DNA of 64,000 bases from an uncultured Thermoplasmatales archaeon. GTDB lineage: Archaea; Thermoplasmatota; E2; UBA202; DSCA01. Below the pieces are notes generated by a model. The model made no database searches. It saw only the letters and a list, made by a program, of their open reading frames with translations, and was not told the DNA's origin. The stretch's first letter is position 1, and the number at the start of each line of letters is the position of its first letter. Position numbers and translations under genes: made by a program. The stretch spans positions 11,772 to 75,771 of the forward strand of contig CAYPWJ010000005.1 of NCBI GenBank assembly GCA_964414415.1. Direction: 5' to 3'. Below, one piece after another: positions 46,507 to 62,090 of this stretch.

Positions 46507-47745
46507 TTAAGCGTTGCCGTCAACAGCTTGGTTCTGTCCTAAAAATTCTTGCAATCTATCTCTATTTGCCTCAGGAAATTTATCTTTATATAGCACTAAT
46601 ACTCGGTCTATTTGTGTAGCTTGGCCCTTTTTTTCATCTCCCCATATCCGACTGACTTTGTTTTCGGTGGGAAGTTTATCTTCAATGATTGAAGCAAGTT
46701 TAAACTGCGTGTGAGGAGCTACCTCTTCCCAGAGCACGTTTGCCAATTTTGTGTGTCTCTCTTCGTTTCTTTTTCCTATGTCACCGACAACGATTGCGGC
46801 CACGCCGTTATCTGCTAGCACCGACTCTATACTATGAAGGAATGTTAAGAAAAATTCGCCATAATTCCGACGGGAATATGCGTCGCTCAAACATTGGTCA
46901 ACTTTTTTTGGGTCAATATCAAGTAGCCATAGTCGAATCCAATTGTATTTCCCATATTTTATAATATTTATATAGGGAGGGGAACAAACCACCAATTTAA
47001 CGCTGTTTTTTTCAAAATATTGGTTTTGAATTGAGGGTAAATCTCTAACATCTGCCAGATATGCTTTTCCTCGATTTGCAGGCAAATCATCCTCATATAG
47101 CCTATCAAGTTTATGTCTCAAGTTGTCGAAGGCATCTAAAGGTAATTTTTTCAAATTTTTTTCTTTGATATAGTTTCTTACATAGTTGGGAGACATGCTA
47201 AAGGTGTTCGGCATACTTATGCTGAGATAACTAGAGGTGTTACCGGATTTGTGATGCTGACCGTGTAAAATTCCTGCTAAGCAAGCTAATAAGAATCTGT
47301 CAATATCATCATTTTTATCAAGATTGTTTTTCAGATATACTATCTGTTCCAAGGTGGATTCATGAAAAAGCATCGATATATCATCGGGAACACTGCGAAT
47401 GTTATCTCCCCCAAAGTTGGTAGATAGCTCTAATATTCTATCTAATGCCTCATCTTTAGTGGGGGGTTTGAGTTTAGCTTCTGTTATGAGATGCGCTAGA
47501 GGATTCAAGTCTACACCTACTCCAACTCTACCTTCAAGACATGCTTGCAAAGGGGTAGTACCACTCCCACAAAACGGGTCAAGCACAACATCTCCTTCGT
47601 CGCTAAATAATTGAATAAAGTAATGTGGAATCCTTGGAGGAAAACTTGCCATATAAGAGCACATAGAATGAAATGAGTGCCCCCATCTTTTCCGAAGTAA
47701 TCGCCAACGATTCTCATCCCACTTTGTTTTCGCCATTATATTCAC
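46507..47745 (-). CDS. DNA N6-adenine/N4-cytosine methyltransferase (N6_N4_Mtase-type motifs)
   Basis: AdoMet motif I block SFHSMCSYMASFPPRIPHYFIQLFSDEGDVVLDPFCGSGTT near the N-terminus and catalytic motif IV VVCSPPYIN about 190 aa later. Confidence 0.85.
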   Translation of the reverse strand: MNIMAKTKWDENRWRLLRKRWGHSFHSMCSYMASFPPRIPHYFIQLFSDEGDVVLDPFCGSGTTPLQACLEGRVGVGVDLNPLAHLITEAKLKPPTKDEALDRILELSTNFGGDNIRSVPDDISMLFHESTLEQIVYLKNNLDKNDDIDRFLLACLAGILHGQHHKSGNTSSYLSISMPNTFSMSPNYVRNYIKEKNLKKLPLDAFDNLRHKLDRLYEDDLPANRGKAYLADVRDLPSIQNQYFEKNSVKLVVCSPPYINIIKYGKYNWIRLWLLDIDPKKVDQCLSDAYSRRNYGEFFLTFLHSIESVLADNGVAAIVVGDIGKRNEERHTKLANVLWEEVAPHTQFKLASIIEDKLPTENKVSRIWGDEKKGQATQIDRVLVLYKDKFPEANRDRLQEFLGQNQAVDGNA

Positions 47746-50012
47746 AGATTCATGGACTCGGTGAGTCTCTCAATGGATATAAGAGAATGTATAATAGTTC
47801 TTGCGGCTCTTTGTAACTCTGACTCAAATACTTCCTCTGGTATGTCGGGGATGCCATCGGCCTCCATTTCCGGTAATTCTTCTTTTCGATAGAAGTGTTG
47901 TAACCACGCACAAAAAGCTACGTACACCGTATAGTTATCTTTGAACCGGTTTATCCATTTCTCAGAATAGCGTGATTTCTCCAGTTGCTCTTTAAAGTAA
48001 TGAAATTCCATAGAAACCAATATGTCTATTGAATCAGCCTCCTCTTTTACCTCTGCAACATTATTCTCGTCCCAACCTAACCTTTCCCACGCCGGCGTTT
48101 GTTTTGATACTCGTCTTATATTTGGAAGCGAGATTTTTCTTTTTGTCCCTTCTCCATAATCAGCTGTGGGTGGCTCTTTTACAATCCCTTTCCGTTCTTC
48201 TTTAAGTGGACTCTGATTTGGCCGGGTTAACACTGCTGTTATTGATACTTCCTCCCCTATTTCAGCTTCGTCAGATGTTTCTAAAAAGCAGCGAAGTCTT
48301 CCTCCATCAAAATAGGAATGTCCCCTAACATTTATGTGGTCTTCGGGCTCTATTAGCAACAATATTTTATTTTGTCGACTCAAATAACCATCTTCTGCAT
48401 CGCTCTCTATCTTCAATTGGGAAGAACGGCCTTTCACCAGAGGGATTGGATCTTGCTTATTTGCGATTTTTATGTAGGTGGGGATTTCCCGGGTCTCAAG
48501 AGGCTCTGGCGGGGTATAGCTTCCTCTCTTAGACGTTCCTGTCTGTGTTTTATCCCCAGAGGATGTGCCGCCTACAGTCTCGGTTTCCCCTCTAACGTAG
48601 TCAATTAATTTTCCTAATTCCTCTTTCAATTTTTGCGTTTCTTCTTCACTTGTCTCTGATAAAATCTCTTGGTGTCTTTGTTTCTCTAATGCCCTCAGAT
48701 CATCATCATTTCTTAAAGCGGTGCGGATAGCTTCCTCCATTTGATCACGGACCATACCTTTATTGAGCCTCTCACGTGTGGAACTAAATAATTCTCTCTT
48801 ACCTTTTGCAGTAAGAGTGTCACAACTTACCTCTACAATGAGATATTTTGATAAGTAGGGTAACTGTAATTTATTTCTGATAAAAGAGCGGGAAAGATAA
48901 CCATGGGTTTGCCCGTAATGAGTGAAGTAAATAGGGTGTCGTTTATCAACATAAGCCTCAACAGGATAGGACTTATCGGGATCATGCCTCAGTACCCAAT
49001 AACGGACTATCACTTTGCCATATTTTCCCGTAGGTCTTAAATTTACCTCACAGACGTCACTTTTTTCTATCAAATCACGTGGATCACTCTGCAGACGGGT
49101 ATAATTCCCAGCAATTGTCCTAGACTTAGTTTTCTTCCTATTATCCGTTACATAGACAGGCAGCACCGGATCAAATAAGGAACTTTGAATGAGCCACCAC
49201 AAACTGCCAGTAGGTGCTGTCAGAGTTGCTGAATATTTTGGAAGCTCAAAATCAATATGTTTGATGTAAGTGCCTTCAAAATTATTACCTAAACCCAACT
49301 CTGTTGGCGGAATTGTTAATACTTCATTTTCATCTGTTACAAGATACTCGTAAGTACCATTTTTGTATTTTTCTGGATCTCGTTCTCCATAACGGACGAT
49401 CGTCATACCTACCACATCTTCTGCGTCCTCCCCTAGTAAGTCGGGTGGACGGCGGGAAATAATAATTGTATATTTACTATATCTGAAAGTTGTCTGTCCT
49501 CCCTGGCCATAAGCTCCTGCTAGATATAGCTTAGTTAATTTATTACTCTCGTTTAGGCTTAAAAGAGTATTAGGAAAATCAAGCGGATGTTGCCCGACGC
49601 CTTTATCCCGAATTACCAGGGTAGGAGTTCTCCTTTTTGACCCTTTATACATTTGTATTTGGATATTATTTTTCGCCAATTTCCGTCTCTCTGTAGAGGT
49701 AAGAGTATCCAAATGCCCGGTTTTTACTCCAAACCATTCTTCTACCGCTTCCCTTGGATTATCCGGGTAGTTATCCATCTCCGGATTTTCAAGGGCAGCT
49801 CTTTCTAATATTGCATCAATGGCATTAGTGAGTCTCTCAATAAAGCCCTCCCCAGGATCTGCACCCATATTTATAACGCCAACATTGTTTTCTTTATCGC
49901 CCACCGGCCGCCATTGTAAGTTATATTTATCCTCTACTTTATTAATAAAACCCTCCATTTCGGTAGCTTCATTGATATTCAATAGTTCTTCCATCTCGCT
50001 TTCTGTAAACAT
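47742..50012 (-). CDS. large GHKL (Bergerat-fold) ATPase protein, prokaryotic MORC/paraMORC-like; C-terminal about 500 aa unassigned
   Basis: N-terminal N box GFIERLTNAIDAILERA (ExxxNxxDA), G1 box VIRDKGVGQ (DxGxG) and G2 box GAYGQGGQTTF (GxxGxG). The 4-nt overlap with the MTase suggests translational coupling. Same AT-rich codon usage. Confidence 0.7.
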   Translation of the reverse strand: MFTESEMEELLNINEATEMEGFINKVEDKYNLQWRPVGDKENNVGVINMGADPGEGFIERLTNAIDAILERAALENPEMDNYPDNPREAVEEWFGVKTGHLDTLTSTERRKLAKNNIQIQMYKGSKRRTPTLVIRDKGVGQHPLDFPNTLLSLNESNKLTKLYLAGAYGQGGQTTFRYSKYTIIISRRPPDLLGEDAEDVVGMTIVRYGERDPEKYKNGTYEYLVTDENEVLTIPPTELGLGNNFEGTYIKHIDFELPKYSATLTAPTGSLWWLIQSSLFDPVLPVYVTDNRKKTKSRTIAGNYTRLQSDPRDLIEKSDVCEVNLRPTGKYGKVIVRYWVLRHDPDKSYPVEAYVDKRHPIYFTHYGQTHGYLSRSFIRNKLQLPYLSKYLIVEVSCDTLTAKGKRELFSSTRERLNKGMVRDQMEEAIRTALRNDDDLRALEKQRHQEILSETSEEETQKLKEELGKLIDYVRGETETVGGTSSGDKTQTGTSKRGSYTPPEPLETREIPTYIKIANKQDPIPLVKGRSSQLKIESDAEDGYLSRQNKILLLIEPEDHINVRGHSYFDGGRLRCFLETSDEAEIGEEVSITAVLTRPNQSPLKEERKGIVKEPPTADYGEGTKRKISLPNIRRVSKQTPAWERLGWDENNVAEVKEEADSIDILVSMEFHYFKEQLEKSRYSEKWINRFKDNYTVYVAFCAWLQHFYRKEELPEMEADGIPDIPEEVFESELQRAARTIIHSLISIERLTESMNL

Positions 50013-53746: not shown

Positions 53747-53861
53747 GCACGTCTCCGGCGGATAATAAATGCACGTATAAACCATATAAAAATAATCCGA
53801 ATATTTATAAACAAGTATTACATTCATTATATGAACGCTCACAAAATGGGAGGTGCAAAAT

Positions 53862-56210
53862 ATGATAAAAATTGCAGCATCCTGCATGGCCGCCGTTCTG
53901 CTCCTGTCCCTCTGCGCAGCTCCGAGCACCATACAGGGCGATGATTCATCCGGCATTCATGGCGGCAGATACGATAGAGTCCAGGTTGCAGACAGCGGCG
54001 ACGGCGACACACTCTACGTCGGCGGCTCCGGAACCGGCAACTACACCACGATACAGGCGGCGGTAACAGCCGCAAAAGACGGAGACACCGTCTTTGTCTA
54101 CGATGACTCATCTCCATATTATGAGAACGTGGTGGTGCAGAAATCCATCCAGCTGGAAGGAGAAAACAGGCATTCCACCGTCGTAATCGGGGTACTAAAT
54201 ACGCCGACGATTGTAATCGCTGCTGACGATGTCATCCTGTGCAGGGTTACTGTCCACCACACGCAGCGAAGTCCATTTCGAAGCGAAAGCGACGGCGTGT
54301 CCATTCGAGGTGCCAACGTAACCATCCAGAATAACTACATCTCTGAAAACTGGAACCACGGCATATCAGTCAGAGGTGCCTCCAGCGTCCGCATCGTGGA
54401 CAACGAAATCAACCGCAACATATGGGTCAACATCTACATGGCTGATGCAACGGATGCCATCATTGCAAACAACACCATCGTCCGAGCCAAGCTGAACGTG
54501 CTGCTTCGCGGCGCTTCACACAATACCATCAGCTCCAACGTCATCGGCCACTCCAACGGCCTCCACATGGATGGTGCATCAAGCCATAACAGCATCGTCG
54601 CCAACACCTTCGAAAACTGCGGAGACAGCATCACGATGCGCGACGGCTGCAGCGACAACCGCATATCAGACAACCGCATCACCGAGAGCTCCAGGATCGG
54701 AGTTATAATCCACGAGGGATGCCTCCGCAACACCGCGAGGAACAACACGTTCACGAGGACGACCATAGGGATAGAATGCCGTTCGCCGAGCACGATAGAA
54801 AAAAATACATTTACCCGGAGCGGCATACGCATTTTTTCGAAAGGCAACAGAGTGGAAGGCAACACCGCCAACGGCAAACCGATTATCTATCTGGAAAACC
54901 GTTCACACGTCGCGGTGAATGAATCTCCCGGACAAGTCATCCTCATATGCTGCGACAACGTCACTATCGACAACCATACGATAGCGAACACGAGCGTGGG
55001 CGTACAACTCTGGCATTCCCGCTACTGCAGCATTGCAAACACCACGTGTACCGGAAACACCGTCGGCATCCACATCGGTTCATCCAGCCACATCCATGTC
55101 GCTGACAATGTCCTCCAAGACAACGAAAACGCTCTGCATATACAGGGGACACAGAACACCGTAGCCCATAACCAGCTTCTATCAAACATGGACGGCATCT
55201 GGCTTGGCTACAGCAGCAACAACAGCATCCAAGACAACCATGTAGCCAACACCCGATACACCGGCATCGACCTCTACGATTCATCCGAAAACAGGATAGA
55301 AAACAACACTCTGATCGATGGGTTCTACGGCATCCACGTGAGGTATTCCTCAAACAATCGTTTCCTCTATAACGTGTTCAAAAGCAATAGCGAAGGTATA
55401 TCGCTCGACAGTGGCACCAGCAACGTTATCGTACATAACGCTCTCTACGATGACGGGCTGCGCGTCCGTCAGGTGGCATCGCTCCGCTCTAACGTCATCA
55501 GAAACAATACCGTGAACGACAAACCGCTTGTCTTGTGGGAGGAAAAAACAGATGAAATCCTGCCTGACGTGGGTCAGGCCATCCTCGTCGGGTGCAGCAA
55601 CGTCACCCTCCGCAACCAGACTATATCAGACACGACAACCGCCGTAACGCTCTGGAATTGCACTAATTGCAGGATTTCTAGCTGCGACATATATGCCAAC
55701 AGCGACGCTGGGATAGAACTACACACATCATCCTGCAACGTCATCCACGACAACCAGCTCCACTCCAACCGATACGGCATCAGACTCTACGACTCCTCCT
55801 CAAACGATATTTCGGGGAACACCCTGTTAGCCGGAGGGTTGCTTATCTCTCGGTCAGACGAAAACCTTGTTAGCGGCAACCGTTTCTCTGCAAACGAGAG
55901 AGCTGTATCTATCGATGCTTCGTCCGGCAACCGCCTCAAAGACAACATCTTCTCCGAGAACAACAACGCAATGGTGGTAGCCCAGAGCAACGGCAACCAT
56001 ATCCATCGCAACGACTTCATAGATAACGAGAACGACGTCATCCTCTACTCATTCCACAACCTCTGGACGAGAAACTACTGGGATACCTGGCACATGGCAG
56101 CCCCGAAGCCGATACTCGGGCATCTCGGGCAGGGAATCCTGACAAACCTCCCGTGGCTAAACGTCGACTGGTGCCCACGGCTTATGCCGCAGGAGGCCGA
56201 CACCGGATGA
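53862..56210 (+). CDS. secreted right-handed parallel beta-helix repeat protein (NosD/PbH1-like)
   Basis: Signal peptide MIKIAASCMAAVLLLSLCAAPS. Many about 22-aa beta-helix coils with N-x-I/V-x-x-N patterns (e.g. IQNNYISENWNHGISVRGAS). C-terminal NYWDTWHMAAPKPILGH...NVDWCPRLMP motif. Confidence 0.75.
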   Translation: MIKIAASCMAAVLLLSLCAAPSTIQGDDSSGIHGGRYDRVQVADSGDGDTLYVGGSGTGNYTTIQAAVTAAKDGDTVFVYDDSSPYYENVVVQKSIQLEGENRHSTVVIGVLNTPTIVIAADDVILCRVTVHHTQRSPFRSESDGVSIRGANVTIQNNYISENWNHGISVRGASSVRIVDNEINRNIWVNIYMADATDAIIANNTIVRAKLNVLLRGASHNTISSNVIGHSNGLHMDGASSHNSIVANTFENCGDSITMRDGCSDNRISDNRITESSRIGVIIHEGCLRNTARNNTFTRTTIGIECRSPSTIEKNTFTRSGIRIFSKGNRVEGNTANGKPIIYLENRSHVAVNESPGQVILICCDNVTIDNHTIANTSVGVQLWHSRYCSIANTTCTGNTVGIHIGSSSHIHVADNVLQDNENALHIQGTQNTVAHNQLLSNMDGIWLGYSSNNSIQDNHVANTRYTGIDLYDSSENRIENNTLIDGFYGIHVRYSSNNRFLYNVFKSNSEGISLDSGTSNVIVHNALYDDGLRVRQVASLRSNVIRNNTVNDKPLVLWEEKTDEILPDVGQAILVGCSNVTLRNQTISDTTTAVTLWNCTNCRISSCDIYANSDAGIELHTSSCNVIHDNQLHSNRYGIRLYDSSSNDISGNTLLAGGLLISRSDENLVSGNRFSANERAVSIDASSGNRLKDNIFSENNNAMVVAQSNGNHIHRNDFIDNENDVILYSFHNLWTRNYWDTWHMAAPKPILGHLGQGILTNLPWLNVDWCPRLMPQEADTG

Positions 56211-57772
56211 CAAAAAACCTCGTAGCCATACACGTGGTTTTCTTCCTTCTCGCCAGCGCTCTGACCCCGACCGCCGGCATCTACAGTGCCCAGAGCGAAG
56301 CGCCTGATCCCGATAGCGTGAGGGTGCAGCTGACTGGAGACGCCGCCACCCTCCATGTCGGTGGCTCAGGACCCGGCAACTATAGCAGCATTCAGGCAGC
56401 TGTCGACGACGCCAGGGACGGAGACACCGTGTTCGTCTACGACGATTCGTCGCCGTATTATGAGAGCGTTTTCATCGATACGTCAATCCATCTGCTGGGT
56501 GAACGGAAAAACACGACGGTCATCGACGGCCGGAAAAACACGACGGTGCTCCGTATAACGGCGGACCGGGCACGGGTCAGCAACTGTACCATCCAGCACG
56601 GCGGCGGACTCGACGACGTCGGAGCAGGGATACATCTCGCCGGCGATGAAAACACGGTTTCCGGCACCGTCATCAAAGACAACCTGGCCGGCCTGGTCCT
56701 CACCCATGCCAGCCACAATGTCGTCACCCGAAACGTTATCGCGGGCAACGGATGGCGGGGCATCCAGTTCCTCCACTCCCACCACAACGCCATCACGGGA
56801 AACCATTTCCACAATAACTGGGAGCACGCCGTCGAGCTCCACATCGACAGCCACCGCAACACCATATCCTGCAACAGGTTTACCCGGGACAGGCCGGAAT
56901 ACCACAATACGCTGCAAATCGGCAGCGACGAAGGCCGCGCCGCCCACACCGTCATAGCCAACAACACATTCGTCGGCGGCGGTCTCACCGTCGAAAGCGG
57001 GAACAACAACACCGTCCGGGACAACCTCGTCAACGGGAGACCCCTCGTCTACATGGAAAACACGGCCGGCGCCAGGATAGACAATGCCGGGCAGGTCATC
57101 CTGGTAAACTGCACCGACATCACGGTGGAAAACCTGCATCTCTCCCGGCTGCACGTCGCCGTAGAACTCGTGGGTTCACGCCGATGCTGCATCCGCAACA
57201 ACACTGTCAGCGGGTGCATGCACGGGATAGCACTTGAGCGGTCGGACGACACCGTGCTTTCAGACAACGAGCTGGTAGACGACACCGTTGCCATTTACCT
57301 CTGGTTTTCACAGCGAAACAGCGTTATCAATAACCGCTTGAGGCACAACAACAACGGAATGAGGCTGTTTTACCGCGCCAGCGGCAACGTCATCTCTGGC
57401 AACGAGCTGGTAGACCAGGTCGATGCAGTGACGTTGACCTCGATATGTACCGGAAACCTGGTCAGATGCAACACCATCGCCGGCAGTGCCGCCGGGCTGA
57501 CGGTAACGGCTTCACCGCTCAACAGGGTCATACATAATACCATCCGCGGGAGCCACGACTGGGGGCTCTGTCTCGCCATGAGCCACGGGACAGTGGTGTG
57601 CTCCAACATCTTCATAGAAAATGCCCTCCATGCAACCTTTGGATCCTCCCGCTTCACCCTGTGCCTGCGGAACTACTGGGACGACTGGCACATGCTGCTG
57701 CCCCGGCCTATCGAGGGAAAATATACCGCGTATGACTGGTGCCCCCGCCTGCTCCCCGCCGGCCCGTGCTGA
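56207..57772 (+). CDS. secreted parallel beta-helix repeat protein (paralog of the upstream gene)
   Basis: Same N-terminal architecture (LHVGGSGPGNYSSIQAAVDDARDGDTVFVYDDSSPYYESV versus the upstream LYVGGSGTGNYTTIQAAVTAAKDGDTVFVYDDSSPYYENV) and the same C-terminal NYWDDWHMLLPRPIEG...DWCPRLLP motif. ATGA overlap with the upstream paralog. Confidence 0.75.
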   Translation: MTKNLVAIHVVFFLLASALTPTAGIYSAQSEAPDPDSVRVQLTGDAATLHVGGSGPGNYSSIQAAVDDARDGDTVFVYDDSSPYYESVFIDTSIHLLGERKNTTVIDGRKNTTVLRITADRARVSNCTIQHGGGLDDVGAGIHLAGDENTVSGTVIKDNLAGLVLTHASHNVVTRNVIAGNGWRGIQFLHSHHNAITGNHFHNNWEHAVELHIDSHRNTISCNRFTRDRPEYHNTLQIGSDEGRAAHTVIANNTFVGGGLTVESGNNNTVRDNLVNGRPLVYMENTAGARIDNAGQVILVNCTDITVENLHLSRLHVAVELVGSRRCCIRNNTVSGCMHGIALERSDDTVLSDNELVDDTVAIYLWFSQRNSVINNRLRHNNNGMRLFYRASGNVISGNELVDQVDAVTLTSICTGNLVRCNTIAGSAAGLTVTASPLNRVIHNTIRGSHDWGLCLAMSHGTVVCSNIFIENALHATFGSSRFTLCLRNYWDDWHMLLPRPIEGKYTAYDWCPRLLPAGPC

Positions 57773-57943
57773 AAACCACGCATCGGCGGGGAGTTAAACG
57801 TGATTTTAATCCTGTTCAACCGGTGTTAAACTGACATTTATATCGCCGGGGCTTCATTTGAAGCAATGGCACCCACGGCCCTCTGGGACAGAGCGGAAAC
57901 ATGCTTCGGACGGCCGCGCTCCTCCTGGACGACGGTGGATGAG

Positions 57944-59230
57944 ATGATCTACGATACCGACAGCTACTTCGACGGCGACCGGGAGAAGATGCGGGAGGCT
58001 CGCTTTGCGGCGACCAAGGAATCCCTGCGGCATCACTACGAGCACAGCCGCTTTTACAACCGGCTCTGCCGGGAGTACGACTTCACGCCCGACGAGGTGC
58101 AGAGCGAGGACGACCTGCACAGGGTCCCCATGGTGCCCGACACCTTCTTCAAGGAATACCCGTCGGAAGATCCACGCCGGGTCTACGAATGGCTGCGAAA
58201 GGTGACCACGGTGGACATCGGCGAGTATGACTACACCGGCAGGTCGCTGCAGGGCTTCCTCCGCTGGGCCGAGCAGCGCCTCCAAGGTATGGTCAACCAT
58301 TCGTCGGGGACCACCGGCAACTACAGCTTCATGTTCCGCGACCGGGTCACCTTCAAGCGCTTCTACTACGCGGCGGTGACCACGCTGCTGGCTGTCTCGC
58401 CGCCGCGCAGCGAGCCGCATTACGTCTATCCGGGCTCCCCGAACACCTATCTCACGCTCGGCCGATGGATCGGCGAGGGCGCCCGCATTTTTAAAGAGAG
58501 CAGGCAGCATTTCCTGACGGATAGAGAGATCACGATGGACGTCGCCCGGCTGCTGTCGACCGGGCAGCCCCGCGGCCTCAGGGACAGACTGAAGCTGCTG
58601 ATGCTCCGGCGGGCCATGAAAAAAGGCGAAAAAAAGCTCGTCGACCGGCTGCAGCGCCTCGACAAGCGCAACGAGCAGACCTACGTCATCGGCCCCCCGT
58701 TCCAGATATACAGCGTCATGCAGCGGATGCGCAAGGACGGCGTCAGCCTGTCACTCGGCGACGACGGCGGCGCCATGGTCACCGGCGGCGGATGGAAAAT
58801 ATATGAAGACCGGAAGGTGTCGGAGCAGGCGTTCGCCGCGATGGCCGAGGAAACGCTGGGCATCCCGCCGGAGCGCTACGTGGATGTCTACGGCATGTCG
58901 GAGATGAACGGGCTGGCCGTCTCGTGCGAGGGACGATACAAGCACCTGCATCCCTGGATCTATCCGATGGTACTCGACGACAACGAGGGGATGCTCGGCT
59001 ACGGGGAATGGGGACGGTTCGCGTTTCTCGACCCCGTGGCGCACAGCTACCCGGGCTTCATCATCACCGGCGACCGCGTCAGGCTGCTCGAGGAATGCCC
59101 CGCCTGCGGCAAAACGGGGCCGGTCCTGGACAACGACATCGGCCGGATGGCCGGCGCCGAGGCGAAGGGATGCGCCAACCTCATGCGGGGGTTGATGGCA
59201 AACGAGCTGAAAAAAGCGGAGGAAGCATAA
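57944..59230 (+). CDS. ANL-superfamily adenylate-forming enzyme (PaaK/LuxE/coenzyme-F390-synthetase-like)
   Basis: AMP-binding P-loop HSSGTTGNYSF. Overall length and layout match phenylacetate-CoA-ligase-like enzymes. The internal Met at 57944 was chosen. Confidence 0.6.
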   Translation: MIYDTDSYFDGDREKMREARFAATKESLRHHYEHSRFYNRLCREYDFTPDEVQSEDDLHRVPMVPDTFFKEYPSEDPRRVYEWLRKVTTVDIGEYDYTGRSLQGFLRWAEQRLQGMVNHSSGTTGNYSFMFRDRVTFKRFYYAAVTTLLAVSPPRSEPHYVYPGSPNTYLTLGRWIGEGARIFKESRQHFLTDREITMDVARLLSTGQPRGLRDRLKLLMLRRAMKKGEKKLVDRLQRLDKRNEQTYVIGPPFQIYSVMQRMRKDGVSLSLGDDGGAMVTGGGWKIYEDRKVSEQAFAAMAEETLGIPPERYVDVYGMSEMNGLAVSCEGRYKHLHPWIYPMVLDDNEGMLGYGEWGRFAFLDPVAHSYPGFIITGDRVRLLEECPACGKTGPVLDNDIGRMAGAEAKGCANLMRGLMANELKKAEEA

Positions 59231-59231
59231 C

Positions 59232-60197
59232 ATGCTGAAAGAGCTCCGGGAGAAAGGATACTTTTTTGACGGTGAATGGATCCGCACGTTTGGGCGGGCG
59301 CTGCCGTCGCTCATCGCCATCGCGCTCCGGCATCCGCTGCTCGTCGTCCATGCAAATCGTGCCTGCCCCAAGGGACCGGAGAACCTGCAGCCGGATGAGC
59401 TGCCCTACGAGATTCCCTCGTATGATGCAGCGATGGAGTGCGGCGTCACGGGCGAGCGGTACCTCCGGCCGACGTATCTGTGCGATCCCTGCAGCGAGGA
59501 CATCGTCGCGATGGCGCACGAGCTCGGTGCCTTCGAGATGGACGACTGGAGCTACGCCGAGCGGGTGTTCCAGTTCGTCAACCGGAACATACGGGTGGAT
59601 TTTTCGCCTATCAAATCTGCGACCGAGACGCTCCAAAAGGGGCACGGCACCTGCATCGACAAGATGTCGCTGTTCATCGCGCTGTGCAGAGCTGCAGGGA
59701 TACCGGGTCGCTACAGGCTGTACAGCCCCACCGGCGTGCAGGCGCTCTACGACATCTATTTCTCCGCGGATCCCCTGGTACAGCGGTGGTTCGACGCCCT
59801 CGGTTTCTTCATCCTGCACGGCAGCGCGGAGGTGTACGTCAACGATGAATGGGTCATCAGCGATGTCTCCGCTGATTTCTATCACACCATAGCGGCCAGG
59901 ATTCCAGTGCCGCATTTCGGTGAGGACCCGGCTGACACATGGATAAAGCCGGCTCGGGGCGTCATGCAGAAGGAGGGGCTCCCGCTTGGATTGAAAGCTA
60001 TCGGCAGCCTGCCGTTCGTGCTGTTCGGCGGCACCGGCCGCGCTGTCAACGCCAGCGTCAAGGCCAACCTGGAGGAGGGGAAACGGCTGCTTGAAGACAC
60101 CACGCTGGAGGAGTACGACCGGGAGATCCGGCGGGACTACGAGCCGAAATGGATCGAGTCGGCGCAGAAGGCCACCAGGGTTCTGGATGAACTGTAG
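59232..60197 (+). CDS. transglutaminase-like cysteine protease-fold protein
   Basis: Core motif QKGHGTCIDKMSLFIALCRAAGIPGRY (Cys nucleophile in G-x-C, then LF-AL-RA-GIP-R), with a His/Asp-bearing region downstream (ILHGSAEVYVNDEWVISD). It starts 1 nt after the adenylating-enzyme stop. Confidence 0.7.
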   Translation: MLKELREKGYFFDGEWIRTFGRALPSLIAIALRHPLLVVHANRACPKGPENLQPDELPYEIPSYDAAMECGVTGERYLRPTYLCDPCSEDIVAMAHELGAFEMDDWSYAERVFQFVNRNIRVDFSPIKSATETLQKGHGTCIDKMSLFIALCRAAGIPGRYRLYSPTGVQALYDIYFSADPLVQRWFDALGFFILHGSAEVYVNDEWVISDVSADFYHTIAARIPVPHFGEDPADTWIKPARGVMQKEGLPLGLKAIGSLPFVLFGGTGRAVNASVKANLEEGKRLLEDTTLEEYDREIRRDYEPKWIESAQKATRVLDEL

Positions 60198-60250: not shown

Positions 60251-61129
60251 ATGAAACGTGCTCACGTGGCGCTCTTCATAGCCATCGTGTCGGTGTCCTT
60301 TGCAGCGGTGTTGATCGTGTCCACCGATGCGAGGCCGCTCGTCATCGCGTTTTATCGGATGCTGTTTACCACGCTGCTGCTCACCCCGTTTTTTGTCCTG
60401 CCGCGCTACCGCCGGGAGCTGACAGGGCTCATTCGCCGTGACCTGCTCGTGCTGGGCGGCATCGGTGTGGTGCTGGCCGCGCATTTCGCCTTCTGGATTA
60501 CCTCGCTGGACTTCACCTCCGTCGCCAGTTCCGTCATCCTCGTCACGGCGCATCCCGTCCTGGTGGCGCCGCTTGCCTATCATTTTTTCCGGGAGCAGGT
60601 ATCCCAGGTCAACGTGGCGGGGATAGCGCTTTCGCTGCTCGGCGTCGTGGTGCTGGTCGGCGGCAACTACAGCCTGGAGCCAGGGACGCTGCACGGCAAC
60701 CTGCTGGCCATGCTCGGCGGGGCGGCAGCCGGCATCTACATCTTGGGCGGCCGGCAGATGCGACACACGCTGTCAACACCGGTCTACGCCATGGTGGTGT
60801 ACGGCGTGGCTACCGTTACGCTGGCCGGCATCGTCCTGCTGGCCGGGGTGCAGCTCACCGGTCTCGGGCTTCGTGCCTACGGCCTCATCCTGCTGATGGC
60901 GCTCATCCCCGGTATTTTTGGCCACACGCTGTACAACTGGTCGCTGAAATATGTCCGCGCATCGGTTGCGTCGGTGTCGCTGCTCGGGGAGCCGCTGGGA
61001 TCCACGCTGCTGGCGTTCCTCCTGCCCTGGATCCATCAGATGCCCTCCTGGTTCACGGTTGCGGGCGGCGGATGCATCCTGCTCGGCATCTACCTGGCGT
61101 CGCGGGCAGCCGAGCCAGAGCCTTTATAA
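60251..61129 (+). CDS. EamA/DMT-superfamily transporter (10 TM)
   Basis: Two EamA repeats, about 10 helices. ITSLDFTSVASSVILVTAHPVL is typical of the family. Confidence 0.8.
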   Translation: MKRAHVALFIAIVSVSFAAVLIVSTDARPLVIAFYRMLFTTLLLTPFFVLPRYRRELTGLIRRDLLVLGGIGVVLAAHFAFWITSLDFTSVASSVILVTAHPVLVAPLAYHFFREQVSQVNVAGIALSLLGVVVLVGGNYSLEPGTLHGNLLAMLGGAAAGIYILGGRQMRHTLSTPVYAMVVYGVATVTLAGIVLLAGVQLTGLGLRAYGLILLMALIPGIFGHTLYNWSLKYVRASVASVSLLGEPLGSTLLAFLLPWIHQMPSWFTVAGGGCILLGIYLASRAAEPEPL

Positions 61130-61154
61130 ATCACCTGTGCCTTACGAAAAAATA

Positions 61155-62090
61155 ATGCGCGTGGGTATTACCGGCGCGGCTGGATATTTCGGCAGAAATA
61201 TTATCGCCCGCCTGGAAGAAAACGACGACGTCGAACACGTGCTGGGCGTCTCACGGCGGCCGTGGCGGCACGACTACCAGAAACTGACGTATCGCCGCCT
61301 CGACGTCCGAAGCGACGCGTTGCCGGGGCTGTTCGCCTCGCACGCCGTCGACACAGTGATACATCTCGCGTTCCTGCTGAATCCCATCCACGACGAGCAG
61401 GAGATGCACGACGTCAACGTCAACGGGACGAAAAACGTGCTCGCGGCGGCGTCGGAGGCAGATGTCAAAAAGCTCGTCATGAGCAGCAGCACCACGGTGT
61501 ACGGCGCTCAGCCTGACAACCCGTCCCGGCTGACAGAGAAGGCACCGCAGCGGGGACGCGACAGCCGTTACTATTATCCACGGGACAAAGCCCGGCTGGA
61601 GGAACACTGCGAGGAATGGAAACAGGCGCACCCCGGCGTCATCGTGACGGTGCTCCGTCCCTGCCTGGTCATGGGGCCAACGGTGGACCAGTTTTACTCC
61701 CGGCTGCTCAACTGGCGGATGCTCCCCCTGGTCAGCGGCGCCAACCCCGAAATGCAGTTCGTGCATGAAGACGACGTCGCCCGCGCCTTCGAGCATTTCA
61801 CCGTGGAAGACGTCGGCGGCGTGTTCAACATCGTCGGCGATGGCACGATGCACTGGCGGGACATCATCGAAATGGCAGGTGTCCGCCCGGTCAGCATCCC
61901 GCGGGCCATCCTGTCACCCGTTATGTCGCTGGCATGGCGGCTCCACCTGACAGAGATACCGCCCGGCATCCTCGACTTCATCCAGTATCCCTGGGTAGCC
62001 GCAGGCGACAAGGCAAAAAAAGCCGGCTTTACACCGCAGTACAGTACCAGGGAAACGCTGTCCGCCTTCCTTGAAGCGACGAAAAACTAA
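61155..62090 (+). CDS. NAD-dependent epimerase/dehydratase family protein
   Basis: Rossmann motif VGITGAAGYFGRNII, then SSSTTVYG and the YYYPRDK (YxxxK) catalytic pair. The internal Met at 61155 was chosen over the 60951 ORF start, which overlaps the EamA gene. Confidence 0.8.
   Translation: MRVGITGAAGYFGRNIIARLEENDDVEHVLGVSRRPWRHDYQKLTYRRLDVRSDALPGLFASHAVDTVIHLAFLLNPIHDEQEMHDVNVNGTKNVLAAASEADVKKLVMSSSTTVYGAQPDNPSRLTEKAPQRGRDSRYYYPRDKARLEEHCEEWKQAHPGVIVTVLRPCLVMGPTVDQFYSRLLNWRMLPLVSGANPEMQFVHEDDVARAFEHFTVEDVGGVFNIVGDGTMHWRDIIEMAGVRPVSIPRAILSPVMSLAWRLHLTEIPPGILDFIQYPWVAAGDKAKKAGFTPQYSTRETLSAFLEATKN

Follow-up and report, generated by a model that had tools for sequence, protein, structure and literature searches.

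A strictly conserved pair of a LuxE-type acyl-protein synthetase and a transglutaminase-fold cysteine enzyme in Thermoplasmatota, and its possible role as an acyl relay

LuxE-type chemistry is to our knowledge hitherto known from bioluminescence only. Described amide synthases of the papain/transglutaminase fold draw their acyl groups from two kinds of donors: (i) the enzymes AdmF (andrimid), CtaG/CtaJ (closthioamide) and BtrH (butirosin) form amides with acyl groups from protein thioesters, which are passed via the enzyme's own Cys within a Cys-His-Asp triad to an amine, the donor being a phosphopantetheinyl carrier loaded by a separate ligase (PMC7183216), and (ii) the arylamine N-acetyltransferases and the NAT-like amide synthases (e.g., GdmF) use acyl-CoA. 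In LuxE (PDB 7XC6; PMC9157457), an adenylating core without C-terminal subdomain employs Lys238 and Arg355, and acylation takes place at Cys364 within the mobile segment 358-TRxxKGCxLS-367; its partner LuxC, an aldehyde-dehydrogenase-fold reductase, receives the acyl group at Cys296.

The 64-kb window, i.e., the whole stretch of DNA analysed here, derives from an uncultured Thermoplasmatota archaeon and harbours a pair of adjacent genes, A and B, encoding a LuxE-type enzyme and a transglutaminase-fold protein (Table 1); no second A-B pair is present in it. Both open reading frames are located on the plus strand, 1 nt apart as claimed in an earlier note on this DNA, and the TAA-C-ATG junction can be read directly, with 9 nt separating GGAGG from the ATG of gene B. 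The start of gene A has to be revised, since position 57944, previously taken as start, corresponds to an internal methionine (M27); invariance of F14, W21 and D25 (59 homologues) and the TATA-like box ahead of the upstream ATG place the start 78 nt further upstream. Neither protein contains a transmembrane segment (maximal KD19 of 0.83 for A and 1.51 for B), and membrane anchoring is rejected on these grounds.

Table 1 Features of the A-B locus (positions within the 64-kb window)
Feature	Position	Strand	Details	Basis
Putative operator of the A-B operon	57794..57831	+	four phased TTNAA cores	pattern search, alignment A5
TATA-like box TTTATAT	57837..57843	+	~26 nt 5' of ATG 57866	sequence; position kept in alignment A5
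Gene A	57866..59230	+	LuxE-type acyl-protein synthetase, 454 aa	ORF and Pfam
P-loop SSGTTGN	58301..58321	+	ATP phosphate-binding motif, A residues 146-152	matches LuxE TSSGTSG
K311 in GGGWK	58796..58798	+	equivalent of LuxE catalytic Lys238	alignment to 7xc6_E
Family-specific Cys cluster of A	58925..59107	+	C354 (58925-27) and C411-P-A-C414 (59096-59107), with H360	absent from LuxE
R427	59144..59146	+	equivalent of LuxE Arg355	alignment to 7xc6_E
Tail motif KGCANLMRG	59165..59191	+	C436 (59171-59173), equivalent of LuxE acylation site Cys364	aligns with LuxE ...KGCSLS
Coupling junction	59218..59234	+	GGAGG 59218-22; A stop TAA 59228-30; C (1 nt); B ATG 59232-34	
Gene B	59232..60197	+	transglutaminase-fold (papain-like) Cys enzyme, 321 aa	ORF and Pfam
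Predicted catalytic triad of B	59652..59864	+	C141 (59652-54), H196 (59817-19), D211 (59862-64)	conservation
Accessory, non-universal genes	60251..62090	+	EamA/DMT transporter 60251-61129; extended SDR 61155-62090	Pfam/NCBIfam

The product of gene A matches the Pfam family LuxE (PF04443; E 1.6e-34, 119.9 bits at a gathering cut-off of 24.9) and the LuxE chain 7xc6_E (E 2.5e-35), the latter alignment reaching residue 368 of 373 in LuxE and 443 of 454 in A. A is a LuxE-type enzyme with an ANL/PaaK-fold adenylating core devoid of the ANL C-terminal subdomain, yet it is not LuxE proper, scoring 90.8 bits against the equivalog cut-off of 550 (NCBIfam NF052244). Similarity to F390 synthetase (TIGR03335) is restricted to residues 53-102 and amounts to 19 bits (cut-off 458.7), and the PaaK models TIGR02155 and NF041878 yield 24.4 and 36.9 bits (cut-offs 646.3 and 700, respectively). 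Structural alignment to 4r1l covers only the N-terminal core (323 of the 433 residues of 4r1l). Thus, of the PaaK, LuxE and F390-synthetase affinities considered in the earlier note, the family scores and the 7xc6_E alignment single out LuxE, and an assignment as F390 synthetase or PaaK is rejected, with scores far below the cut-offs and an architecture of the LuxE type. Unlike the PaaK/F390 synthetases (COG1541), A lacks the PaaK C-terminal subdomain and possesses a LuxE-type Cys tail.

The residues of LuxE assigned to adenylation and acylation have counterparts in A. The SSGTTGN motif recognized in the earlier note is present, H145, S146, S147, G148, T149 and G151 being invariant among 59 homologues, and K311, R427 and C436 are all retained in 43 of 43. 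Residues 432-445 have pLDDT values below 50 in the predicted structure, suggesting that the tail carrying C436 is probably mobile, as is the KGC segment in LuxE. A differs from LuxE by ~80 additional residues, with two conserved insertions at ~100-141 and ~175-260, and by a Cys cluster comprising C354 and a CPxC motif. This cluster is kept in 42-43 of 43 pairs and invariant in alignment A4, whereas LuxE has no Cys at these positions; judged from the sequence, it may represent a structural metal site.

The product of gene B belongs to the transglutaminase/NAT (papain-like) fold (Pfam Transglut_core PF01841; E 7e-14, 52.5 bits, cut-off 23), flanked by family-specific N-terminal (residues 1-90) and helical C-terminal (254-320) parts. 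The Cys motif that had been described as intact is indeed found (GHGTCIDKMSLFIALCRAAGIP, residues 137-158, 59640-59705), and the Cys-His-Asp residues are present in the protein of the window and retained in 43 of 43 A-linked B proteins from genomes. Across 127 B proteins the Cys is invariant (127/127); in a distant clade, other residues occupy the His/Asp positions (C-E-H, C-T-E or neither), indicating that the canonical triad is not needed everywhere. A covariation of the A tail motif (GC[AG]NLMR or GCAEE[VM]RR) with the triad type of B was considered and rejected, not being strict. B has no match to Pfam BtrH_N and C39, and no detectable sequence-family match assigns it to the arylamine N-acetyltransferases, from which its own N- and C-terminal extensions also distinguish it. 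The relationship to AdmF, CtaG and BtrH is one of shared superfamily only, as recognized from fold and gene context; the activity of B is a predicted one.

The pairing was analyzed in ~140 Thermoplasmatota loci of genomic and metagenomic origin. Wherever the flanks of an A gene can be read, a B gene lies next to it: 79 B genes were called directly downstream, 9 more were confirmed by tblastn and 3 pairs are arranged in B-A order. The gap in the 79 called pairs has a median of 1 nt (95 % ≤30 nt), and pairing persists down to 37-39 % identity in A and 27-30 % in B. Since full-length B-type proteins are rare (only 82 clusters at E≤1e-30 among 1.84 billion representatives), the pairing lies far beyond chance. 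Some genomes contain up to three paralogous pairs (e.g., L003, L019 and L057 in the CAZESS MAG), i.e., the pairs duplicate as units. The clusters of A and B correspond to each other (ARI 0.9; distance correlation r 0.82; Mantel p 0.001). The deep topologies of the two trees disagree. About 20 % of B-family genes are without a neighbouring A, so B-type enzymes can also act without A in cis. The strict co-conservation of the two families, together with their co-diversification and tight spacing, agrees with the earlier proposal of a functionally coupled unit, for which phylogenomic co-occurrence had been named as a check. No A-B fusion occurs among the best 150 matches of the search of 1.84 billion representatives. 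Apart from B, no neighbour of A is conserved, including LuxC and carrier proteins, and no amine-supplying gene is conserved near the pairs. A known anti-phage defence system is rejected, as the PADLOC models yield no match for A and a single insignificant one for B (E 0.0064). A literature search for a pairing of LuxE-like or other adenylate-forming enzymes with transglutaminase-like proteins returned nothing relevant; the A-B pair is strictly conserved and previously undescribed.

The further surroundings of the pair are variable. The EamA and SDR genes adjoin A-B only in L001-L003 and recur in a divergent arrangement in L080 (56 and 48 % identical, respectively), so that the exporter link drawn previously is not general but does recur once. 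Transporters other than EamA follow B-type genes at ~20 loci, and in other clades B-type genes are adjoined by MFS or Glt-type transporters and by SDRs; these recurring transporters make a small-molecule substrate or product plausible. The SDR of the window is a generic extended SDR with UDP-galactose 4-epimerases as best PDB matches (E 1e-13) and weak scores against thioester-reductase-like models. The surface beta-helix (NosD) genes, whose vicinity had suggested a surface component as a possible target, are rejected as partners, being absent from this position even in 85 %-identical relatives and lower in GC content.

From the above, one may propose that the two enzymes constitute an acyl relay independent of CoA and of carrier proteins, a proposal we regard as evenly poised. 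A would convert a carboxylic acid with ATP to the acyl-adenylate, and by analogy with LuxE the acyl group could then move onto A's own Cys436 in the flexible C-terminal tail. The resulting thioester may be transferred to Cys141 of B by trans-thioesterification, comparable to the step from LuxE to LuxC, and acyl-Cys141 would finally acylate a nucleophilic acceptor, for which an amine is the likeliest candidate, with formation of an amide. Such a relay would resemble LuxE/LuxC in that the acyl group is expected to reach a Cys of the partner protein encoded next door, with a transacylase of transglutaminase fold replacing the reductase; it differs by the absence of luxD/A/B and by its archaeal host, and the acid used by A is probably not myristate. 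Compared to AdmF, CtaG and BtrH, the acyl group would come from the Cys tail of the ligase itself instead of from a phosphopantetheinyl carrier. The sequence of acyl activation and papain-fold transfer envisaged in the earlier note is chemically reasonable and now has a LuxE-type enzyme at its head, while amide formation stays inferential. Several of the above observations speak against the relay: no A-B fusion was detected, part of the B-family genes have no neighbouring A, the canonical triad is replaced in the distant clade, the A tail motif does not strictly follow the triad type of B, no amine-supplying gene is conserved, and the deep branchings of the A and B trees differ. Somewhat more tentatively, and falling short of an even call, the pair may be viewed as a minimal, Thermoplasmatota-specific thiotemplated synthase for amide bonds or acyl transfer, in which the Cys tail replaces CoA or carrier and B condenses, with up to three co-regulated paralogous sets per genome, yielding acylated metabolites or proteins.

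Other readings of the pair have to be weighed against this relay. An identity of A as a common CoA ligase of the PaaK type or as F390 synthetase, with B as a neighbour unrelated in function, is effectively refuted by the family scores given above, by the match of A to LuxE up to its end with the tail Cys retained, and by the obligate adjacency of B. A sequential salvage or catabolic route, in which B as amidase or peptidase frees an acid from an imported amide-linked compound and A subsequently activates it without thioester exchange, appears improbable: it would leave unexplained why all members retain the LuxE-type acylation Cys on a mobile tail, since a thioester on A would still require an acceptor. 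Moreover, no conserved neighbour is CoA-dependent or a reductase, and the A-then-B order with translational coupling suggests stoichiometric co-production. In another reading, B would be a thioesterase serving as editing or release factor, which hydrolyses or clears the acyl-Cys436 adduct; the net effect would be a controlled activation of the acid followed by its release, or a regulation of A. Papain-fold Cys enzymes readily hydrolyse thioesters, and invariance of the Cys alone, with His/Asp varying in one clade of B, would suit this function; however, an ATP-burning futile cycle is unlikely to be maintained in as many as three paralogous copies within one genome, under an operator of their own, and nothing else conserved nearby could use acyl-A, so that this role is judged quite unlikely.

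In the proposed relay, adenylation precedes loading of the activating enzyme as a thioester, from which transthiolation to the Cys of a second protein and aminolysis follow. By analogy, this is the order of E1-E2 ubiquitin-like conjugation, although the folds are unrelated to those of E1 and E2 and a ubiquitin-like substrate is not in evidence. This raises the question of whether the pair could be a tagging system that activates a peptide or protein carboxylate, or uses a protein lysine as acceptor, and thereby acylates or cross-links proteins rather than forming a metabolite. The formal match, from adenylate via own-Cys thioester and second-protein Cys to the amine, would be in line with it, proteins are the classical substrates of transglutaminases, and the distant L141 pair (B-A order) is located among radical-SAM/SPASM enzymes and methyltransferases in a setting resembling peptide maturation. 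Nevertheless, tagging is considered a distinctly doubtful option: beside the pairs, neither a small ORF nor a gene of the ubiquitin-like kind is conserved, the recurrent transporters favour small molecules, and the PaaK/LuxE-like core of A belongs to a family using small acids.

If the acyl relay holds true, it would constitute a third route by which activated acyl groups reach a transferase, beside CoA and carrier-protein thioesters, and LuxE-type chemistry would be reused with another acceptor enzyme in a major uncultured group of sediment archaea. It would furthermore assign a function to families annotated as "hypothetical" or as "PaaK-like" and "transglutaminase-like", suggest that Thermoplasmatota contain acylated metabolites, or modified proteins, not yet described, and could yield a compact two-protein tool for amide formation.

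The module appears to have its own promoter, as TTTATAT may serve in this function judging from its sequence, and the A-B mRNA is probably leaderless or equipped with a short leader. Transcription would be controlled by the conserved putative operator directly 5' of the TATA box, with TTNAA cores at 57794-98, 57805-09, 57815-19 and 57826-30 (spacing 10-11 bp). This array occurs once in the window (expected 0.00), and allowing 3 mismatches adds only self-overlapping matches there. A search of the window for a specific regulator gave matches to generic receiver domains only; in clade 2, a response regulator is encoded next to the element. Across 142 loci the array has 12 matches, all 30-90 nt 5' of A genes. 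Phased TTNAA repeats precede A genes in three clades, and the TT.AA columns are invariant in alignment A5. The putative operator provides a handle on the regulator and the inducing signal. A relaxed pattern of the array is found 5' of 26 of 102 A genes, as compared to 16 of 936 other genes.

The region flagged in the earlier note is taken up by two plus-strand ORFs, A (LuxE-type acyl-protein synthetase) and B (transglutaminase fold); no transmembrane segments were found in either. The TAA stop of A (59228-30) is followed after 1 base by the ATG of B, with a GGAGG 9 nt upstream of the latter. The motifs quoted from both proteins were found in the window sequence. The start originally proposed for A (57944) proved to be a methionine inside the gene, since F14, W21 and D25, which do not vary among 59 homologues, all lie N-terminal to it. 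A TATA-like TTTATAT is located about 26 nt upstream of the ATG at 57866.

Features of the window and of related loci
Feature	Coordinates	Strand	Remarks
N6/N4 DNA methylase	46507-47745	-	in low-GC island
756-aa protein	47742-50012	-	no family match; in low-GC island
Low-GC island	46507-50012	-	GC 0.41-0.45 vs ~0.62
Two NosD/right-handed beta-helix proteins	53853-57772		GC 0.52-0.59, lower
Four TTNAA cores, 10-11 bp apart	57794-57830		upstream of A; end just before TATA box
Gene A	57866-59230	+	ORF, 454 aa
Gene B	59232-60197	+	ORF, 321 aa
Histidine kinase + receiver-HTH response regulator			upstream of A in L018, L019, L021, L025, L026, L028, L037, L043, L045

A is assigned to LuxE by Pfam (PF04443, 119.9 bits), and a profile of the A family matched the solved LuxE chain 7xc6_E (E 2.5e-35). 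In this alignment, GGGWK (K311) of A corresponds to LuxE K238, R427 to R355, and KGC (C436) to the motif 358-TRxxKGCxLS-367, which contains Cys364. According to the LuxC-LuxE cryo-EM study (PMC9157457), LuxE is devoid of the C-terminal subdomain of ANL enzymes, with K238 and R355 driving both adenylation and thioesterification, and the acyl group is carried by Cys364 on a flexible C-terminal loop, from which it passes to LuxC Cys296. Three features set A apart from LuxE: a pair of conserved insertions, a Cys cluster specific to the A family (C354, C411-P-x-C414), and a helix, also conserved, beyond the tail Cys. F390 synthetase, formerly considered an option, is dismissed by 19 bits against an NCBIfam cut-off of 458.7. 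NCBIfam scores for PaaK were negligible (24-37 bits, cut-offs 646-700), and A also fails the LuxE equivalog (90.8 bits, cut-off 550).

In B, the canonical triad positions of the transglutaminase fold are held by Cys141, His196 and Asp211, intact in 43/43 A-linked homologues. Few full-length B-type proteins exist: 1.84 billion representatives contain only 82 clusters of them at E<=1e-30, and no A-B fusions occurred among the best 150 matches in a search of these representatives. Type 1 (canonical C-H-D), which includes the window protein, is almost always encoded downstream of an A; type 2 (C-E-H) belongs to a distant clade, and rarer variants lack any His. The Cys is invariant in 127/127 sequences. 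Neither B copy at locus L058 has the canonical His or Asp.

With each species represented by a single genome, a search using the A alignment yielded 55 loci, nearly all from Thermoplasmatota MAGs, with one contig binned as Dehalococcoidales. A same-strand B follows A at every one of these loci that has downstream sequence, even where identity falls to 37-55 % for A and 27-35 % for B. Another 80 loci came from the reverse search, in which metagenome contigs were scanned with the B alignment. In the two scans combined, a B was called immediately 3' of 79 A genes (gap 1 nt at the median, <=30 nt in 95 %); 9 seeming exceptions are ORF-calling artefacts, B being revealed there by tblastn, and 3 pairs show B-A order. 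Seen from B, the link is less strict: where the upstream DNA can be read, roughly one in five B-family genes has no adjoining A. A and B have co-diversified, with matching clades (ARI 0.9 at 5-6 clusters) and correlated distances (0.82, Mantel p 0.001); their deep branching order differs. The pairs duplicate as units, three being present in MAG CAZESS (L003, L019, L057) and two on one contig at L034. That A and B are coincidental neighbours is effectively excluded.

The only pair in a bacterial-labelled MAG (L140, identical to L054; Dehalococcoidales contig CAZGVH010000009.1) adjoins DUF1616 and a riboflavin operon whose RibBA fusion is of bacterial type, and could reflect horizontal transfer or a binning error. 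At L055 (5085-5324), a HicA-like toxin ORF is joined in frame to the final ~45 residues of A (..ILESDITRMAGAEAKGCANLMRGLMAEEFKK) beside other toxin-antitoxin-like small genes; this ORF is what remains of an A gene that mobile TA cassettes have disrupted. An intact pair (L011) is present in the same MAG.

The TTNAA array upstream of A (57794-57843 region) is probably an operator for a putative regulator. Derived from a small number of loci, the pattern has a single occurrence in the 64-kb window (0.00 expected even with one mismatch allowed), further matches with three mismatches all being self-overlapping. Among the 142 fetched loci it occurs 12 times, on each occasion 30-90 nt ahead of an A gene; three divergent clades are represented, as are paralogous pairs of one MAG. 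In relaxed form it precedes 26/102 A genes versus 16/936 other genes; it stands before none of the orphan B genes, transporters or SDRs. About ten clade-2 loci encode a histidine kinase and an HTH-bearing response regulator immediately upstream, mostly at a distance of 51-77 nt from A but at 260 nt in L037; this two-component system is a candidate for controlling the operon. Given this restriction of the array to A genes and the upstream two-component genes, the A-B operons appear to form a regulon under a putative regulator of their own. The '63%' clade (L012, L013, L016, L051) has no TTNAA array upstream of A; a palindrome (TAACAATTGTTATA) overlapping the TATA box there suggests that another operator serves the operon in this clade.

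No further conserved gene family was found around the pairs in the scanned loci. Downstream of C-E-H type B genes there is often an MFS transporter (~20 loci) or a Glt-symporter-like gene, and an extended SDR frequently lies divergently upstream of them. The EamA exporter brought into connection with the pair does not accompany it in general, the EamA and SDR genes of the window following A-B only in the 85%-identical relatives. Since EamA (56 % identical) and SDR (48 %) also stand divergently upstream of a distant pair in L080, the link is nevertheless recurrent and more than inherited synteny. Tandem B paralogues (A-B-B') occur in L058, L107, L110, L142, L087 and L098, often with an MFS transporter downstream and with a divergent extended SDR.

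The most economical reading, given about an even chance, is a LuxE/LuxC-type relay with another acceptor. A would adenylate an acid and transfer the acyl group to its own Cys436; its tail would then swing into B, where Cys141 would take over the acyl group and hand it on to an acceptor nucleophile, an amine being the most likely. The analysis itself establishes family membership, conservation of residues, the fold, the obligatory neighbourhood of A and B, their co-diversification and the shared putative operator; self-acylation, transfer to B, the acid and the kind of acceptor are inferred. For the papain-fold enzymes CtaG, BtrH and AdmF, formation of amides with acyl groups from protein thioesters is established (PMC7183216). 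B might instead be a hydrolase acting before A, which appears unlikely, or a thioesterase or regulator of A, for which the prospects are poorer still. The recurrence of transporters favours a small molecule as substrate or product; an E1/E2-like cascade directed at a protein or peptide is rated as improbable as the thioesterase or regulator role.

The novelty of the proposed relay lies in combining an acyl-protein synthetase with a transglutaminase-fold acceptor, a combination for which full-text literature searches returned nothing. It is not a categorically new system, because each part comes from a known superfamily and precedents exist for the proposed chemistry; NATs perform the same chemistry from CoA thioesters. 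The association of A and B is unusually clean and open to direct testing.

The pair at L141 (3639-12316) is a distant one, arranged B-A with a 4-nt overlap and with Thr/Glu at the His/Asp positions of B. Genes for a B12-binding radical-SAM enzyme, two radical-SAM/SPASM enzymes and two methyltransferases surround it, a setting that resembles a cluster for the maturation of a peptide or natural product. The beta-helix genes, earlier regarded as a possible surface context of the pair, lie outside the A-B unit: situated between a DUF3147 membrane gene and A, they are missing at this position in the 85%-identical L002 and L003 and represent a recent insertion. The low-GC island of the window is probably a horizontally acquired restriction-modification-like cassette.
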